A DNA stretch of 54,742 nucleotides from an uncultured Candidatus Micrarchaeota archaeon (GCA_903835325.1 CAILMU010000061.1:1-54742); one strand, 5' to 3'; positions 46,123-54,741 are shown, numbered from the stretch's first letter. A program made the numbers and translations. The notes: generated by a model not told the origin, from the letters alone.

Positions 46123-46788
46123 ATGTCGATATTCGATAAATGGGCCTGGATCAGGCGAAATTGCGCGTATGTGCTTGAGGAAGCCACTGCATTGGATCTG
46201 GTCTTCGTCGGAGGCACTGCGCTCAACCTTGTTCTCTTCAAAGAGTATCGCGCATCGGAAGATATCGACCTCTATGACCCCCAGGCGAAAACCGTCGGGG
46301 CTGCGCATGAAAAAGAATGCGTGGAAAAATTGGCGAAGCGCCTCGCTGAAAAGGGTTTTGAAATCAAATCAAGAGATGAAAGAGCCCTTTGGATAGGCCC
46401 GAACATAAAGGTCGAAGTGTTCAATGACGGGACATCTTTCACGAAAATAGAGAAGAGGGACTTTGACCAGGCAACCATCCTCACCTTTGACCTGAAAACA
46501 TATGCGGATATGAAGATGGCCGCCCTTTTATGCAGGACAACCTATGATGCACGCGACCTTGTGGATTTGTTCGTCATGAAAAAACAGGCCGGGGTTGTGC
46601 CGCGGTTCCCTGTACGCGAATGTGACGTGATAGAGAACCGTTTCAATGGAAGATTGATGAGCATCAAGCAGACCAAGAGAGAGGATCTGTCGGTATTCCA
46701 AACGGATGCGCAGATTGAGAATCTTCCCTACGGGGAATTCGAAGAATTCAAGAAGTGGTTGTATGGCTGGCTATCAGGATTTCGTTGA
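46123..46788 (+). CDS. AbiEii/AbiGii-type nucleotidyltransferase (type IV toxin-antitoxin toxin family)
   Basis: Motif VFVGGTALNLVL...RASEDIDLYD is the GGTAL / R-x-S-x-DIDL pattern of this family. A TATA-like TTAAAAATA lies about 20-28 nt upstream. Confidence 0.65.
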   Translation: MSIFDKWAWIRRNCAYVLEEATALDLVFVGGTALNLVLFKEYRASEDIDLYDPQAKTVGAAHEKECVEKLAKRLAEKGFEIKSRDERALWIGPNIKVEVFNDGTSFTKIEKRDFDQATILTFDLKTYADMKMAALLCRTTYDARDLVDLFVMKKQAGVVPRFPVRECDVIENRFNGRLMSIKQTKREDLSVFQTDAQIENLPYGEFEEFKKWLYGWLSGFR

Positions 46789-47479
46789 GGTATTCGGCAG
46801 CGGGGTTTTCATAAAATCGAGCGGCATCGCAAAAAAATATCCGCTACAAAAAGCCCTTGCATCGTTGTACGTCTTGCCGACATTCTTCAGGGGCATATGC
46901 TACATCCCGACGGGTCTGGAAAGGAAAGCCCATATCATCGAAAGAAAGCAGGATTTCTTCACTTCGCTGTTTGATTTCCGTTATGGGAAGAGAAGGTGGT
47001 ATTGGGCTTTGAGCACAGCCGCACGCCACTATGGCATTGAATGGAGCGCCACAAGAATCCTTGAGATCGTTGCCCTGGAACGGCCGAAAACGATCGGCAT
47101 TTCAGGCAAAATCCGATCCCTGCAGAGGAAGAGGTCATACCGTTCACGAACTCTTGCAAGATATCTTGCATCGTTCGAAGTGAATGCGATATACGTCCAT
47201 AAAGGGAATGCGGGGTCTTTGCTATCGATTAAGATAGATGATGCGATAGGGCCTGTCTGTTCAAAAGAGCAGATAAAAAAAGACATCGAAACCTTCATCC
47301 CGAAAGTCAGGGACCCCAGGATAAAAGGCATATACAAGCGGATTGCTGAGGAGATGAAGCCGGAAGGGGAACTGAGCATGCAGACAAAAAAAGATATCGA
47401 GACCGCCCGAAAAGATATCAGAGAAGGGAAAGGAGTGATGTTATCGAAAATCGGCCATAGGAAGAATACCTACAAGTAG
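46763..47479 (+). CDS. possible AbiEi-like antitoxin/regulator (238 aa)
   Basis: Segments LPTFFRGICYIP and WYWALSTAARHYGIEWSATRILEIVALERPKTI resemble AbiEi core motifs (RGxY, SAL..hGl...p..i.v). The start is chosen at MAGYQDF and is uncertain. It overlaps the toxin gene's 3' end. Confidence 0.45.
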   Translation: MAGYQDFVEVFGSGVFIKSSGIAKKYPLQKALASLYVLPTFFRGICYIPTGLERKAHIIERKQDFFTSLFDFRYGKRRWYWALSTAARHYGIEWSATRILEIVALERPKTIGISGKIRSLQRKRSYRSRTLARYLASFEVNAIYVHKGNAGSLLSIKIDDAIGPVCSKEQIKKDIETFIPKVRDPRIKGIYKRIAEEMKPEGELSMQTKKDIETARKDIREGKGVMLSKIGHRKNTYK

Positions 47480-47583
47480 GCACAGAGCCGGGCGCATGGT
47501 TCTGAGCCAACGGCGATGAAATAATCGGGCCGAAAAGGAAGTTTTTTATTACATGCCCGAGTCATAAGGAGCGAGGTATTTCT

Positions 47584-47985
47584 ATGCTTGAGATGAGAGA
47601 GATGTGGCTCAGCGGCGCCGAAGTGAAGAGGATGGAGGGCACAGGCGTCCCGAGCAGCATCCAGATAAATCTGGGGATTGACAAAGTGACCGAGAACGGC
47701 TCTGGTTCGCTGATGCTGGATTTCACGTACATGGTGGACTACAAGCCCGCGTACGCGATGGTGAAAGTGACCGGGCGGGCGAACTGCTACGACAACCCGG
47801 AGAACATCAAGAGGATCCTGGCCGAGTTCAAGAAGAAGAAGGCCTTGCCCCCGGAACTGGCATCTAACGCGATAAACATGATAAACGCGAATGCCGGGAT
47901 AAACATCGTCTTCCTGGTGAGGCCGTTCAATCTGGCGCCGCCGTTCATGCCTCCGCCCATATTCGCCGAAGGCAAGAAACAATAA
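47584..47985 (+). CDS. small hypothetical protein (133 aa) with a Pro-rich C-terminus
   Basis: GAGG-type Shine-Dalgarno-like element (GGAGCGAGGT) about 8 nt upstream of the ATG. Composition is natural, and the opposite-strand ORF is Arg/His-rich junk. A faint SecB-like pattern is present but not claimed. Confidence 0.55.
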   Translation: MLEMREMWLSGAEVKRMEGTGVPSSIQINLGIDKVTENGSGSLMLDFTYMVDYKPAYAMVKVTGRANCYDNPENIKRILAEFKKKKALPPELASNAINMINANAGINIVFLVRPFNLAPPFMPPPIFAEGKKQ

Positions 47986-48060
47986 TGAAAATAGGATGGG
48001 CAAACCAAGGCCCAAGACGCTTCTTTTTAGGTTTTCCGATTCACTCCAGCCGTGCCCAGG

Positions 48061-51000
48061 CTAGAACAGCATGCCCGCATGTATCATGAACCCTGCCTGC
48101 ATAGGCTGGTTCTCCACCATGGTCGCGGTGGACTGCATTGATTCGGGCCGGGCCGTCGACATCGGCATGAACGGCCAATAGCCTTTCCATCCTACAGCCG
48201 TTATCCACCATTTGCTCCCGACTCCGCCCCGCTCTATGGTGGTGTTGGTGTATCCTATCCCGCCGCGCATGATGAATTGCGAGTAGGAATCCGACTGGTC
48301 GAGGGTGGCTCCGGCTGCAGGTATCGAGGTCGCCCCCAGGACCCGCCCCGTCTCCTTCCCGCCTTCGTAGAAGATGTGCAGCGCGTTCGTCGTGCCGGTG
48401 ACCACATTCGTCCTGGACCAGGTGATGCCGAGGCCTGCTGTGGCCCTTTGGAATTCCGAGAGGTTCGCGCATGAGCCTACTCCGAGCTTCGTGCAGATGT
48501 CGGCGAGTTCGTCGGTGTTGTGGAACACGTCCGAGGATGCCGCGACTATCCTCTGCTGGGCCGCGTTGAAGAACACATAGCCGAACCATTGGTTGAGCAC
48601 GGATTCGGTCGCGACGGTCCTGAGCCTGCCTGAGACCATGAACTGCAGGTCCCGGTATTGCTCCACGCTGTATTGCCGGGTTCCCACCTTGAGACCGGCC
48701 AGGATATCGTATTTGTGGTCCTGGAACACGTCTATGATTCCGCCGACGGTCCAGTTGTTAGTTGCAGACCATGATTTGGCAGCCTGCGAAGTGAGCGGGA
48801 CGGTGTATCCGCCGATCACCTTGCCTGCGCTGAACCACCTGGCCCTTTTATCGCCTGAGAACATAAGCTTGTAGTTGCTCCCCTCCTTATCGATGACCAG
48901 CCTGGATATGGCTCCCCCTATCTGGAGGCCTGCTTCCTGCCATTCCTTGAGGTCCTCGTAATTGCCTATCATCAGCGCCCCTATCGAACCGGGCTCCGAG
49001 ACCTTGGTGTTGAGGATATAGTATTTGTTGTTCCTCTGGTCCTTGAACAGCTTGCGGTCGCTCTTGTCCCTCATCGAGCTGTCGGCCGATAGGCGCTGGC
49101 TGAGGATTATGTCGTACCTGTCGGCATTCAGCCCGTATTCGCTTGAGGAATCCATGGCCTGCTGCAGCACGCCCTTGATATCCCTCTCCATGACGGTCTT
49201 GAGCTCGGCTCCGGTCAGTTGCGTCTGGACAGGCGGGGACGGCATCCTCGTCTCCGACAAGCGCGCCTCGATGCTGTTCGCTTTCTGCGTACGGGCGATG
49301 AACGCCTTCTCCATCCTGTCCGGAGATAGGAGTATCCAGTCGTAATCCCGGTTCCCTTTCATGACCATCTCCAGGATATCAATGCCGTAATCTGCCTTCA
49401 GCCTCTCAAGGTCGGGTTTGGTTTTCCTCAGTTCGGTGTAGATGTCGATGAGCGCGTCCGCGCTTTTCCCCAGGTCGTCATGGAAATGCGTGATCAACGG
49501 CATCACGTAGTATTCCTGGTCTTTCTTCTTCGCCTGCAGGTCGCGCACTATCTCCAGCTTCGGCTTCACCATCCACGAGAGGTCGTCCCTCCCCTGGTCC
49601 GCGATATCGATGAACGCTTTGCCGTAGATGCCTTCGAGCCGCCTCCTGTTCGGACCCATCATGTTCCCATATTCGTGGTAGACGTCCATCAGGGCGCGCG
49701 CGGCATTCGGCTCGCTCGGAATGGAAAGCGGGCGCTCGTACTGGTACTCGGGGCCGAGCGGATAGTTCACATAGCCGAAGCCGGCATACATATCGGCATA
49801 GGGCCGCAACGCCGGCCTGCTTATCGAAATAGTAGGCTGGCTCGTGTCTATCACGACGGGCGCATAGCCGTAGCCCCTTAAATCTATCTGGGCATAAGTC
49901 GAGGTCGGTTTCCCGAATATCATCAATCCGGACAGATTCGCGTATGCCTGCTGGTCCTGCGGGGTGAGGCTCGCGGTGGTCGAAGTCATCCATTGCCCGG
50001 ACCCGATCAAATACGCTCTGGTCTTCTCGCCGTCATAACCGTAACCTAGGGTGAATCTCCAGATGTCGCGGTCTACATATGATTGCAGGCTCTTGTTCAG
50101 ATTTCCCAGGATCGTCTCCTGGTTCTGAGGGTTGAGCTGTATGTCCCTCATGGCGGAATCTATCGTATTGTACATATTCGTGAAGCCCGGCACCCTCTGG
50201 CCCCCGACCAGAAAGCTGTGCCTCTGCGCCCAGTACATGAAAAGCAATGAGCCGTAATGCGGGCTCGGCGTGTTTATAGGATTGCCGTTCGCATCCTTGC
50301 GCTGGCCGACGGTGTATGTCCCATCCGCGTTCCTCTGCGTCCAATCCTCGAGCTTGCCGTACATGTAGGTGGCGGAAATCAGCAGGCCGGTGTTCCTCGC
50401 CTCGTCCTCGCTCCAGTGGTAGAAATTCACGAGCGTCGTCTTGATGCGCGAATACATCTGGTCGGCCTGGGCGCTCGCCATCATGTAGTTGTCCATGAGA
50501 TTTATGTCGCTGTAGCTCACGGTCGCTCCGACGGATTTCGTCTGGTATTTGGTCGGCTTCCATTCCCACGCGCCTTTCACGCCCACTACCGGAGACCAGT
50601 TCCCGCCGGATGTGGAGAACACGGGCGTCCTCATCGCGCCTCCAGCTGCCCTGAACTCGAACTGGTCTGCAAGAGGGCCTTCCCTGGTCCTCATCCTCCG
50701 CCATAATACTTCGCCGACGCCCCCTGAGAACGCCGAATCCGAGATGTGGGTATTGTCCGTGGGATCCGTCTTCACCACTTCATTGCCGCGGAAGAAAGCC
50801 GCATACACATCCTTCTGCTTGCGGTCCTGGAGCAGGTGCGTGACTGCGTTGCCGACAGCCTGCTGGGCGGCATAAGGCGTCATGCTCTGGATATCGCGCG
50901 CGAGATTCCCGAAAGCGAGCGCCGAGTAGGTCTCGCCTCCTCCGGTCGGAAGCGTGAACCCGACAGCGGTGCCGCTCAATCCTCCGGCCGCCGAATCCTT

Positions 51001-54000
51001 TGAGAGCATGCTGCTCCCGATTGTTTTTATGGATGAGAGGAACTGCCTGGTGTTCGCGCCGAAATAGAGGAAGTTCATCAGCTCGGCCTGCGTGTCCGAA
51101 CCGTAGTCGAGCTGGTACATGTTGCCTTCCTTGGTGATGAAAACGAGCCTTGAATCCAGCCTTCCCTGGGATGGCTGGTTTGTGAGTTCATCGTAGTGCT
51201 CGCCCGCTACATAGACCAGCATGTCCGTCGCGTTCTCCTTGGCTATCCTCGAATAGGTGTCCAGGAGGCCTTTCGTGTAGCCCCTTGTCTTCTGCTCTGT
51301 GGAGCTCGACGCCCCGCCTGGCGGGGACAATGTCGTTGTCGTGCCGGCGTATTCGCGGTGGATATTCCCTATCCCGCGCGTGATGCCGACATTCTCGTCT
51401 TCTGCAAGGAACGGCAGTATGCCCGAGAAAGGCACCTTCATGGCATTCGCCTGCGCGTCCACTGTGTATTGCCTTGTCGCGGTTGAAGATGTGACCGGGC
51501 CGCCAGCCGGACCAGCGATGGTCGTGGTCGTGGAATCTGTGTAGGTGACCGCTTCCCTGTGGCCTCCGCTGATGCTCCTCTGGCCGAGGAAAGCCGCGAT
51601 GCCCCCGGTGTCTGTCGTCGTGGAACCTGAACTTGTCCGGCCGAAGAATCCGCCTGCCTCGCCGACGGTGTTGAGCCAATACCCGCTGTAATCTGCCGGC
51701 ATAGGCCCGAATGACTCGCCGATACGCCTGAGAAGTGTGGATGCCCCGATAGCGCCTATCCTGAACCTGTTCGAGACCCTCTGCCTGAACATCTTGGGCC
51801 CGGGTTCCCGGACCTGGTCGGACATATATGAGTATGTCGTATCAGCGCCCGGCGTGAATGCTATCCCGGTACCGACAGGCTGCCTGGCCTGCGTCGGCAT
51901 CGTTGCCCTCGGATAGAGATCCAGGGGCTGGGGTATCTGGCCGTAGTTGGTCGGCATGGGCTCGAAACCGGTCGTCTGCCAGAATCCAGGTTTCGGCTGG
52001 TACAGATAGGGAAGCTTGTAGTTCATATCGAGCCTGGGTTCAGGAACCAGCCTGAGCTCGTCCTCGAGCCGGTTGTGGTCGAAGTCGCTCGTCGCTTTCC
52101 TAAGGTTGGCGCCGATGTCCGCGAACACCCCGAGGAAGTACCTGCGGTTTATGACATTCGAGTATGCCCAGCTGCTCTGCCCGTTGTCGTATCTGGCGAC
52201 CACATTAGCCGTGAATGCGCTCATGGCGCTTATCAGGGTCATCTCGTCCTGCGTCACATCAAGGATGGCAGGCATGACATCGAGAAGGAAAGGCCCGAGC
52301 AGGTATGGGTCCCTCTGAGAGATGATTACGATGGTCTGCATCAGGGAATTCGCTGCCGCTTTCGAGAACGAGGAGTCGGTCCCGGAATACCGTTCCAGCG
52401 CCATGCCCAGGTAAAGGGCATCCATGAGGCTCAGCTTGTTCGGGAGGTCCGCGACAGCGGCATCGGTCAGGTCTCCGGTCGATGGATGGAAATTGCCAGT
52501 GCTGCGGGAAAGATTGTACTGGTCCGAGAGCTGGTTGAAGAAGTTCCTTCCCTGCGTGATGAGGTTCTTGCCTGAATCCGTCGCAAGGAATGCAGCGAGC
52601 TGCTCCGGGCTGGAGATGCCCTTGAAATTAGGAGGCAGGTCGACATTGTACCTCTTGGAGAGCGACTCGAGATTCCGGCTGAACAGGTCGAGGTTCACGA
52701 AAAGGTTGAACAGGTAGTCGTTCGTGCCAAGTTCGTCGCGGTAGTATTGTATCGCCTGGGTCAGGTCGGTAGACATGGTCTGCGTCGCGTTCGTGAAGCT
52801 TGTGGCTGTCTTTATCTGCAGGTAGACCTTCGGGATGACATCGGCCAGGTGTATGAAGTTCTTCATGAAGTTCGATTTCGCGACGCCGGGGCCGTGCTCG
52901 AATCCGCTGTTGAGCGTCTCATAGAGCTCGGGGGGCATCTGGGATTCAAGAGTATCAGCGGTGGTCGAAGGGCTCTGGATTATCTTCTCGAGCAGCTCGA
53001 AATTGGCTTCTATGGCCTTCACGAAGGCTTCGCCATGGACATCGTAAAGCTCGGCCAGCGCGCCCTTGTAGAGCTCGATGTTCTCCTTGGTCTGGGGCCT
53101 GCTCTTGTTCTCTTCAATCACCGAGATTATGGAGGTGATGTCCTCGAGCATATGGGTGTCCTGGTCGCGGTAGGAGCGGAGCGTTCCGAGGACTGCTTTC
53201 GAATGCGCCGAAGGGTAGGCCTGCATCAATGCGTTGCGGACAGATTGCGGGAGGTCTTTCACGGTGTCGAGGTTGGCTCCGGCTTCTTTCAATGTGGCAA
53301 GCGAATCCTTCTGCGCTTCCACCGCCTTCACGAACTCCTCGCCGAAAATCTTGACCATCGAGGCGCGGTCCTCTCCGGCACTCGGGTTCGTTATCGCCCG
53401 GTATGTCCTAATCAGGATGGATGAATACAGGTCGTTCTCCACCATCTTCATGTTCCCCATCTTGAGCTTCATCTTCTCCGGGCTGTCCAGGAAAGCGAGG
53501 TTAGGCGCCTGTGCCCGGACAGCAGTGACGAATCTCTGGCCGTACAAGGAGACCCACTGGCGCTCCTGCACGGTGTCGCCTTTCTTTATGGATGCGTAGA
53601 CGCTTCCGAGGGCGTCGAAATACGCCTTCTCGTCCATGCCGATTATGAAACCGAACAGTTCGGGGTTCGCCTTGCGGAGCACGCCGGCGACCACGTCCTC
53701 CATCACGGCGCGCTTCGGAGTCCCGGCTATCGCCGCGAACTTCGCCATCAGGCTCGCCATCCTGCCGGATGCGGTCGAAAGTGTCGGCGTGATGCCCGGG
53801 AGCATCGGCGTGTTCATGAGGTCTCCCCCTGTCTCGGCCACATGGATGAGGGCGAATGCCGTCTCGACGGCCTCATTCAGCTCCTGCGGTGTTATCATGC
53901 TGTCGCGCAAACTTTTCTGCCTGGCGGATATGGCCCTGATGGCATCCGAGCCGAGGTTCGGGCTGTTGGATTCTCCCCTGAGGCGCACATTCTCCTTCTC

Positions 54001-54741
54001 CCACCGTTCTATGTGCTCCCAGAGCCGCGCCCGCACCGGCGCGAGTATCTTGCGCCTGAGATTGTGCTTTATCTCCTCTATGTCGCGCTCGATTATCTGG
54101 TATGTGTCCTCGATCCCGGCCTGCAGGTTGGCTGCCCCGCGCGTGTCGATGGCTTTGGTCGGCGCCACTTTCGATATCATGGGGTTGATGAAGATGCTCC
54201 CCAAAGCGTCGTTCGCGTCCGACTGCGCCAGCTGGCCGCGTATCACCGCCTGCCTCGCGTTCGCGATGGCCGAGATGAATTGCGGGGCGGTGTAGAAATA
54301 GATGTAGTTGGAGACCAGTTCGGAAGTCGTTTTGTCCTTCTTCTCCTGGATGCCTTTCTCTATGCTGTCCAGGTCGCCGGCGAGCCAGCCGAGCGAGGCC
54401 TTGTTCTTCTCGACGAATTTCGTGAGCGGTTCGCCGTAGGTGTCCGCGAGCCTTTTGCGGTCAGGCTTCGCCTTGCTCATCTCCGCATATATGTCCTGCA
54501 TGGCTTTGGCGAGCGTGCCGACAGAGAAGCCTATCAGCGGGACCGGGTTCGCGCCCTTAGTCGCTTGGGAAGCGAGCTGCTTCATGAACGGGTCGTCCAT
54601 CTTGCCCGGCATCTCCTTCTCGAGCTCGCTGACGGATTTCACCACCCAGCCCATGCTGTCGAGGTTCTTCCATACGCTGTCTAGAAATTCCTTGCCGTAG
54701 GTTTTCTCCAGGGCAGCGCGCTGCTCGTGCAATGGCTTCAC
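48061..54741 (-). CDS. giant hypothetical protein (more than 2226 aa), N-terminus beyond the window edge
   Basis: The ORF is open to the window end. The helical N-terminal part carries a repeated ...YG..F... module. The middle and C-terminal parts are beta-rich and aromatic/Gly-rich. The protein ends ...AGFMIHAGMLF. Confidence 0.88.
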   Translation of the reverse strand: MKPLHEQRAALEKTYGKEFLDSVWKNLDSMGWVVKSVSELEKEMPGKMDDPFMKQLASQATKGANPVPLIGFSVGTLAKAMQDIYAEMSKAKPDRKRLADTYGEPLTKFVEKNKASLGWLAGDLDSIEKGIQEKKDKTTSELVSNYIYFYTAPQFISAIANARQAVIRGQLAQSDANDALGSIFINPMISKVAPTKAIDTRGAANLQAGIEDTYQIIERDIEEIKHNLRRKILAPVRARLWEHIERWEKENVRLRGESNSPNLGSDAIRAISARQKSLRDSMITPQELNEAVETAFALIHVAETGGDLMNTPMLPGITPTLSTASGRMASLMAKFAAIAGTPKRAVMEDVVAGVLRKANPELFGFIIGMDEKAYFDALGSVYASIKKGDTVQERQWVSLYGQRFVTAVRAQAPNLAFLDSPEKMKLKMGNMKMVENDLYSSILIRTYRAITNPSAGEDRASMVKIFGEEFVKAVEAQKDSLATLKEAGANLDTVKDLPQSVRNALMQAYPSAHSKAVLGTLRSYRDQDTHMLEDITSIISVIEENKSRPQTKENIELYKGALAELYDVHGEAFVKAIEANFELLEKIIQSPSTTADTLESQMPPELYETLNSGFEHGPGVAKSNFMKNFIHLADVIPKVYLQIKTATSFTNATQTMSTDLTQAIQYYRDELGTNDYLFNLFVNLDLFSRNLESLSKRYNVDLPPNFKGISSPEQLAAFLATDSGKNLITQGRNFFNQLSDQYNLSRSTGNFHPSTGDLTDAAVADLPNKLSLMDALYLGMALERYSGTDSSFSKAAANSLMQTIVIISQRDPYLLGPFLLDVMPAILDVTQDEMTLISAMSAFTANVVARYDNGQSSWAYSNVINRRYFLGVFADIGANLRKATSDFDHNRLEDELRLVPEPRLDMNYKLPYLYQPKPGFWQTTGFEPMPTNYGQIPQPLDLYPRATMPTQARQPVGTGIAFTPGADTTYSYMSDQVREPGPKMFRQRVSNRFRIGAIGASTLLRRIGESFGPMPADYSGYWLNTVGEAGGFFGRTSSGSTTTDTGGIAAFLGQRSISGGHREAVTYTDSTTTTIAGPAGGPVTSSTATRQYTVDAQANAMKVPFSGILPFLAEDENVGITRGIGNIHREYAGTTTTLSPPGGASSSTEQKTRGYTKGLLDTYSRIAKENATDMLVYVAGEHYDELTNQPSQGRLDSRLVFITKEGNMYQLDYGSDTQAELMNFLYFGANTRQFLSSIKTIGSSMLSKDSAAGGLSGTAVGFTLPTGGGETYSALAFGNLARDIQSMTPYAAQQAVGNAVTHLLQDRKQKDVYAAFFRGNEVVKTDPTDNTHISDSAFSGGVGEVLWRRMRTREGPLADQFEFRAAGGAMRTPVFSTSGGNWSPVVGVKGAWEWKPTKYQTKSVGATVSYSDINLMDNYMMASAQADQMYSRIKTTLVNFYHWSEDEARNTGLLISATYMYGKLEDWTQRNADGTYTVGQRKDANGNPINTPSPHYGSLLFMYWAQRHSFLVGGQRVPGFTNMYNTIDSAMRDIQLNPQNQETILGNLNKSLQSYVDRDIWRFTLGYGYDGEKTRAYLIGSGQWMTSTTASLTPQDQQAYANLSGLMIFGKPTSTYAQIDLRGYGYAPVVIDTSQPTISISRPALRPYADMYAGFGYVNYPLGPEYQYERPLSIPSEPNAARALMDVYHEYGNMMGPNRRRLEGIYGKAFIDIADQGRDDLSWMVKPKLEIVRDLQAKKKDQEYYVMPLITHFHDDLGKSADALIDIYTELRKTKPDLERLKADYGIDILEMVMKGNRDYDWILLSPDRMEKAFIARTQKANSIEARLSETRMPSPPVQTQLTGAELKTVMERDIKGVLQQAMDSSSEYGLNADRYDIILSQRLSADSSMRDKSDRKLFKDQRNNKYYILNTKVSEPGSIGALMIGNYEDLKEWQEAGLQIGGAISRLVIDKEGSNYKLMFSGDKRARWFSAGKVIGGYTVPLTSQAAKSWSATNNWTVGGIIDVFQDHKYDILAGLKVGTRQYSVEQYRDLQFMVSGRLRTVATESVLNQWFGYVFFNAAQQRIVAASSDVFHNTDELADICTKLGVGSCANLSEFQRATAGLGITWSRTNVVTGTTNALHIFYEGGKETGRVLGATSIPAAGATLDQSDSYSQFIMRGGIGYTNTTIERGGVGSKWWITAVGWKGYWPFMPMSTARPESMQSTATMVENQPMQAGFMIHAGMLF

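Follow-up and report, generated by a model that had tools for sequence, protein, structure and literature searches.

The DNA stretch analyzed here (the window, 54,742 nucleotides) is the entire contig C61 of the genome of an uncultured Candidatus Micrarchaeota archaeon (GCA_903835325.1 CAILMU010000061.1; 1.59 Mb, 246 contigs, 90% complete). At its 3′ end lies a giant gene on the minus strand. The open reading frame (ORF; 48061-54741(-)) comprises 2,226 open codons and runs past the contig end, which agrees with a preliminary description of the window that reported a protein of more than 2226 amino acids (aa) with a missing N-terminus. The missing part was recovered from an adjoining contig, as had been proposed there. 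The end of C61 overlaps the reverse-complemented contig C33 by 197 nucleotides (99% identity), and the join yields a frame of 2,872 codons with an in-frame stop directly upstream. A start at the second ATG gives a protein of 2,868 aa and agrees with the starts of the homologues (MAG.RL..E). The 3′ part of the gene covers 48061..54741(-) with 2,226 codons and the stop, and the 5′ part covers 646 codons (C33:21500-23633(+)). The joined protein is collinear with full-length homologues (2,529-3,080 aa) over the contig junction. As judged from these alignments, a genuine giant gene encoding approximately 2,870 aa is present in a single copy, and most of it lies in this ORF.

Basic residues open the N-terminus of the giant protein; next come a weakly hydrophobic segment and the site N-L-N-x-F-G...A-M-A-Q, which is conserved. 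This leader is conserved among the homologues and contains the residues RR. Outside the leader, a hydrophobic transmembrane helix was searched for, and none was found. Export via the twin-arginine translocation (Tat) pathway was rejected because TatC (PF00902) was not found in the 90% complete genome, and on the same ground the protein is most likely exported by the Sec pathway. Only three cysteine residues are present in the whole protein, and the C-terminal domain contains two of them as a conserved pair.

The N-terminal half of the protein appears to be built around seven four-helix modules of about 52 aa with a YG..F motif (consensus ALRDIYRELGKARPDRARLERRYGEEFVDLVEANRDSLSWLLRPPAEIEREL). 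To avoid circularity, the module profile was seeded from the orthologous copies of one module only (13 proteins). The seed profile detected four further copies in the giant protein with 10-37 bits, compared with a peak of 1.8 bits in 200 shuffled sequences. Iteration raised the count to nine copies with 16-52 bits (at residues 489, 565, 640, 726, 1023, 1089, 1208, 2329, and 2409 of the complete chain), compared with at most 3.4 bits in shuffled sequences. The module had been claimed to recur at least seven times; its nine copies score far above the shuffles and represent significant internal repeats, and the seven YG..F peptides and three beta-rich peptides given as examples were all located at the positions indicated. 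In the window, copy 3 (residues 640-690; 54610..54741(-), 45.8 bits) is cut by the contig end. It is followed by copy 4 (residues 726-775; 54355..54504(-), 51.8 bits), copy 5 (residues 1023-1068; 53476..53613(-), 34.0 bits), copy 6 (residues 1089-1133; 53281..53415(-), 35.2 bits), and the truncated, weak copy 7 (residues 1208-1239; 52963..53058(-)), which still reaches 15.9 bits. Copies 8 (residues 2329-2381; 49537..49695(-)) and 9 (residues 2409-2458; 49306..49455(-)) were recognized by the profile and also modelled by AlphaFold as four short helices each, with the Y-G located where helices 2 and 3 meet (predicted local distance difference test score (pLDDT) 72-91). According to the iterated profile, the full-length homologues contain 6-11 copies each. 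Five relatives bear an extra copy within the middle beta-rich region described below, and copies 8 and 9 are absent from the relative L011. No copy was found in the other ORFs of the organism's genome. The YG..F module is an undescribed helical module of about 52 aa and is best regarded, from its distribution along the sequences, as an accessory unit. A different giant protein (P0063; 2,420 aa, encoded on a 27-kb Logan contig) has the leader motif and YG..F modules in common with the window protein. The C-terminal 400 aa or so of P0063 are unrelated to those of the window protein, are strongly outer-membrane-protein-like, and end with ...GNIIFNW.

Downstream of copy 7, the alignment revealed a strongly conserved non-repeat hub (residues 1290-1560; 52000..52812(-)) with the motifs RDPYLxGPFLLxVxPA and NRRYFL, which reads as probably helical. 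Alignment and composition delimit a conserved proline-rich linker (LRLVPEPR...YRPGFWQ...LPRPTMPT; 51763..51999(-)) and the adjoining middle beta-rich region of about 700 aa with Thr/Ser/Gly-rich stretches (49705..51762(-)), which was modelled by AlphaFold with a pLDDT <50. Relatives bear large helical insertions at four sites of the middle region, and it is this region that the shorter distant relatives (1,400-2,100 aa) have in common with the giant protein. The composition analysis agrees with the earlier view that the middle and C-terminal regions are rich in Gly, Ser, Thr, and aromatic residues. A duplication of the C-terminal domain as the origin of the middle region was rejected because the hhalign probability was 0.7%. 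An RHS/YD-repeat cocoon protein was considered as well and rejected, as there is a lone GYGYDGE motif and no Pfam match at E <= 1.

The C-terminal domain comprises the last 383 aa (48064..49212(-)), as defined by alignment and subjected to AlphaFold and Foldseek. From approximately position 48753 downwards (the last 230 aa or so), an amphipathic run of hairpins with strands of 11-19 residues is predicted. One face of the strands is rich in Gly, Ser, Thr, and Gln, the opposite face is aromatic or aliphatic, and variable, indel-rich loops alternate with short, mostly conserved turns. The conserved cysteine pair (C2729 and C2737; 48469..48495(-)) is located in a loop-helix of this domain. The last strand (QAGFMIHAGMLF; 48064..48099(-)) consists of alternating hydrophobic residues with an aromatic last residue (...GFMIHAGMLF), that is, the final amphipathic strand with an aromatic end by which a beta-signal is recognized. 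The last residue is W, F, or Y in 38 out of 50 family representatives, with alternating hydrophobics in the last strand, and was aromatic in all 13 complete homologues gathered first, against a background of 7% terminal F, W, or Y among the ORFs of the organism's genome. Distant members end with ...LGLSVGYQW or ...ISGNIIFNW and closely resemble porin termini. The remaining representatives (12/50) end without an aromatic residue, which counts against a membrane barrel. Because the aromatic terminal strand is a conserved family trait, coincidence, which had been considered for this ending, is excluded.

AlphaFold was run with the last 1,200 aa (13 sequences) and with the last 383 aa (22 sequences). 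The longer model reached a mean pLDDT of 47, and only modules 8 and 9, together with the beginning of the C-terminal domain, were modelled confidently. The shorter model displayed the long hairpins mentioned above at a mean pLDDT of 57. No match at E <= 0.001 was obtained with either model in Foldseek searches against the PDB, and all matches of the last-383-aa model had E >= 0.019 and a TM-score <= 0.25. Among the best 50 of these non-significant matches, 36 were outer-membrane barrels (BamA, FhaC, BtuB, EspP, porins, TamA, and LptD). Further weak matches were the lipid-binding beta-sheet proteins ApoB100, MTP, lipovitellin, and LmcA, as well as hemolysins. Of the outer-membrane-like ending proposed in the preliminary description, the conserved strand stands, and the structure prediction suggested for the C-terminal part did return long hairpins. 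The barrel itself stays a candidate fold, as the models are of low confidence and the suggested structure search gave no significant match.

A word-based search of 5.8 billion proteins yielded six relatives (2,529-3,080 aa), and the full-length homologues are 30-45% identical along the entire length. The same type of search with a mixed, diverse alignment of the family gave no matches. A scan of 1.84 billion cluster representatives with a hidden Markov model (HMM) of the last 1,200 aa retrieved only 66 proteins. All of them were assigned to the family by shared architecture, and every named one belongs to Micrarchaeota, including "Ca. Bilamarchaeum," with most members in one genus. One member is encoded on a 665-kb contig. 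A family match is present in 26 out of 401 genomes of the phylum, 18 of them among the 27 genomes of the organism's own genus. The proteins of other genera are shorter (1,400-2,100 aa), and only the beta-rich core is common to them. Five loci only were found in a metagenome scan. No matches were obtained when the protein, its relatives, and three sub-alignments were searched against Pfam, NCBIfam, and the PDB, and no description of the family was found in the literature searched. The archaeal origin assumed for the window stands, and the distribution indicates that the giant protein is specific to Micrarchaeota. On a hypersaline-sediment contig (L030), a distant family member is followed downstream by a 266-aa ORF and then by a gene (L030:10086-11480(+)) whose 464-aa product contains the Sigma70 domains of regions 2 and 4. 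Either a bacterial-type sigma factor occurs in a presumed Micrarchaeota context, or the contig of this subfamily is non-archaeal.

The gene neighborhood is conserved. In five homologous loci, a giant gene is followed by a gene encoding 600-830 aa and by the gene of the family described here. An SGNH/GDSL-hydrolase domain was identified in the product of the 600-830-aa gene in four of the five loci. The copy of L011 has no recorded Pfam match and was assigned by BLAST similarity to the organism's own SGNH protein. In the organism's genome, the order on C33 is a 1,577-aa protein (G000:C33:1405-6138), giant A (3,535 aa; G000:C33:6508-17115), a 999-aa protein, a gene encoding a helix-turn-helix (HTH) plus nucleotidyltransferase protein, and the giant gene. 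The 999-aa protein matches Lipase_GDSL_2 below the cut-off (E 5.6e-6, 27.4 bits vs 32.9). Neither giant A nor the 1,577-aa protein has a Pfam match above the curated cut-off or an obvious signal peptide; the two have a similar C-terminal stretch of approximately 90 aa. Judged by gene order, the giant gene closes a conserved cluster of four genes, among them the SGNH hydrolase-domain gene. The composition of the proteins points in the same direction. In most relatives, the orthologues of the giant and SGNH proteins are almost devoid of lysine (K 0.1-0.5%, R 10-12%; L003, L005, L006, L010, L012-L016, and L022), in contrast to housekeeping neighbors in the same loci with the same GC content (5-8% K). 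The window's own copies (giant protein K 5.8%), L011, and L021 are not lysine-poor. The common avoidance of lysine supports a functional link of the two genes and suggests that the two proteins have a common fate.

In the homologous loci, the giant gene is followed by a convergent gene encoding about 135-150 aa and, where the contig reaches, by Trm56 and an ABC transporter. The window's own convergent gene (47584..47985(+), 133 aa) contains the motif INMINANAG...RPFNLxPPFMPP and is kept in the five homologous loci with 48-54% identity. In two of these loci, a second, diverged paralogue lies alongside. A 181-aa ORF overlapping the 133-aa gene (47470-48015(-)) is spurious. Toxin-antitoxin-like small genes beside the giant gene are confined to the organism's own genome. 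An AbiEii nucleotidyltransferase toxin gene (46123-46788(+)) flanks the giant gene in the window, and the HTH-plus-nucleotidyltransferase gene (G000:C33:20306-20980) is an insertion that separates the SGNH gene from the giant gene.

On balance, we regard it as somewhat probable that the giant protein is an exported envelope or host-contact protein, which combines a conserved beta-sheet core with variable helical decorations and acts with the upstream cluster. The conserved beta-rich C-terminal half would form the structural core and assemble into an extensive beta-sheet or a scaffold resembling a barrel, located within the cell envelope or upon it (surface layer (S-layer) or membrane surface), and the last aromatic strand may close the sheet or provide its docking to a partner. 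The helical modules, which vary, would be exposed as decorations, possibly as a stalk or binding array facing the host cell. The protein would work with the products of the three upstream genes (the protein of approximately 1,500 aa, giant A, and the large SGNH/GDSL-hydrolase-domain protein), of which the SGNH-domain protein could modify esters of the host's or the organism's own envelope. Insertion through a beta-barrel assembly machinery (BAM) and a classical lipid outer membrane would not be involved. Several observations weigh against this interpretation. The models of the beta region are without useful confidence (pLDDT 47 and 57), and the preference for a scaffold over a membrane barrel is a judgement for this reason. 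The strand pattern suits a membrane barrel equally or better than a soluble sheet, and outer-membrane barrels prevail among the best, albeit non-significant, Foldseek matches (36/50). The absence of genes such as Omp85 is not proof, because the genome is 90% complete. Furthermore, giant A and the SGNH protein have no obvious signal peptide, which leaves their tie to an exported protein unexplained.

A true transmembrane beta-barrel, in which the C-terminal domain, with or without the middle beta region, is closed in a lipid layer of the archaeon itself and the helical half is outside, appears quite improbable. Such a protein, although archaeal, would be built like an autotransporter or SprA/LptD. 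Such a barrel would account for the beta-signal-like terminal strand with its aromatic end (38/50), the predicted long amphipathic hairpins, the near absence of cysteine from the protein, the variable indel-rich loops interspersed with short, mostly conserved turns, and the predominance of BamA, FhaC, BtuB, EspP, and porins among the best Foldseek matches. These matches, however, all have E >= 0.019 and a TM-score <= 0.25, and the pLDDT of the two models is 57 and 47. A sequence link to outer-membrane protein families was sought in Pfam, NCBIfam, the PDB, and the 1.84 billion representatives and was not found. Omp85/BamA (PF01103) was absent from the search of the 90% complete genome, whereas the same search was positive in seven diderm genomes. 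A screen of the organism's ORFs for other barrel-like tails revealed none, and the giant protein would thus be the sole barrel-tailed protein of the genome. TIGR01564, an S-layer family of Methanocaldococcus, was matched in its N- and its C-terminal part (G000:C175:1815-2024, C215:885-1100, and C156:1834-2136), which suggests an S-layer protein gene in the organism that may be divided among the ends of contigs. Two membranes of Micrarchaeota, which would favor a barrel, were postulated in earlier cryo-electron microscopy papers, as far as these are cited in a later study (bioRxiv 10.1101/2021.04.28.441871). That study describes a cultivated Micrarchaeon from a different lineage, in which one membrane is covered by an S-layer, and argues against the older two-membrane proposal. 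There is a small chance that Micrarchaeota make genuine membrane barrels with a bacterial-type terminal aromatic strand inserted without Omp85; the giant protein would then either be anchored by its barrel in a second lipid layer or be inserted as a barrel into the membrane of the host.

Archaea of the DPANN group depend on hosts, for example for lipids, which would suit a membrane device directed at the host. The protein would be set free or reach out to a wall-less or S-layered host, and its amphipathic beta region might insert into the host's membrane like a beta pore-forming toxin, or it might form a long hydrophobic, lipid-carrying beta-groove aided by the SGNH hydrolase; neither route requires BAM. 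Export of the protein, the location of its gene beside a gene of the SGNH/GDSL lipase family, and the weak Foldseek matches to lipid-binding beta-sheet proteins and hemolysins are in accordance with such a function. However, these structural matches are at noise level, no similarity to known pore-forming toxins or AsmA/TamB-like families was found in Pfam, NCBIfam, and PDB searches, and the data fit a host target and the archaeon's own envelope alike. We consider the host-directed device rather unlikely. That a mobile element or virus carries the gene as cargo, or that the gene is decaying, is very improbable. The toxin-antitoxin-like small genes flanking it here (AbiEii and HTH plus nucleotidyltransferase) would fit a mobile origin, but the relatives keep their chromosomal surroundings (Trm56, ABC transporter, and phosphoglucomutase), one of them on the 665-kb contig, the frame is intact across 2,872 codons, and the gene occurs in 18 out of 27 genomes of the genus. 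The conserved synteny seems to have largely refuted cargo or decay.

The envelope of Micrarchaeota is disputed (two membranes vs one membrane plus S-layer), and the family provides a concrete, clonable test object with a C-terminal domain of about 380 aa whose conservation extends beyond a single genus. Transmembrane beta-barrels that end in an aromatic residue are regarded as typical of the outer membranes of bacteria, mitochondria, and plastids, and we know of no characterized archaeal transmembrane beta-barrel with an aromatic C-terminus. If the membrane barrel is real, some archaea would possess transmembrane beta-barrels as well. Even as a soluble scaffold, the family would define a novel helical module, and the four-gene cluster with the SGNH hydrolase is a strong candidate for surface building or host engagement of the symbionts.

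Among known systems, type Va autotransporters (EspP and Hbp) resemble the giant protein in the signal peptide, the long displayed N-terminal region, and the amphipathic C-terminal strands with an aromatic end, and the weak Foldseek matches include the beta-domain of EspP. Unlike in type Va proteins, the displayed part consists of helical modules (predicted from sequence; copies 8 and 9 modelled as helices) instead of a beta-helix. The beta region greatly exceeds theirs in size and is interrupted by helical inserts, sequence and HMM searches gave no match (PF03797 of Pfam included), BamA was not found in the genome, and the protein is archaeal. The type 9 secretion translocon SprA and LptD/BamA are similar in their huge chain with many long beta-hairpins and loop-inserted domains, and BamA, LptD, and TamA dominate the weak Foldseek list. 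This likeness stems from low-confidence models (TM-score <= 0.25), and neither sequence similarity nor outer-membrane biogenesis genes accompany it. The SPEARE proteins of Nanohaloarchaeota are reportedly very large, exported, lineage-specific proteins of tiny symbiotic archaea and are thought to mediate host contact. Compared with this description, the giant protein has no common domains and possesses its own helical module and barrel-like tail, and its family is without a recognizable protease, adhesin, or nuclease domain. Archaeal S-layer proteins (TIGR01564/TIGR01567; SLP_Mh of "Ca. Micrarchaeum harzensis") are, like the giant protein, exported, poor in cysteine, and rich in Thr and Ser. 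The giant protein does not match TIGR01564/TIGR01567, TIGR01564-like genes are present separately in the genome, and its size is three times that of SLP_Mh (101 kDa; bioRxiv 10.1101/2021.04.28.441871).

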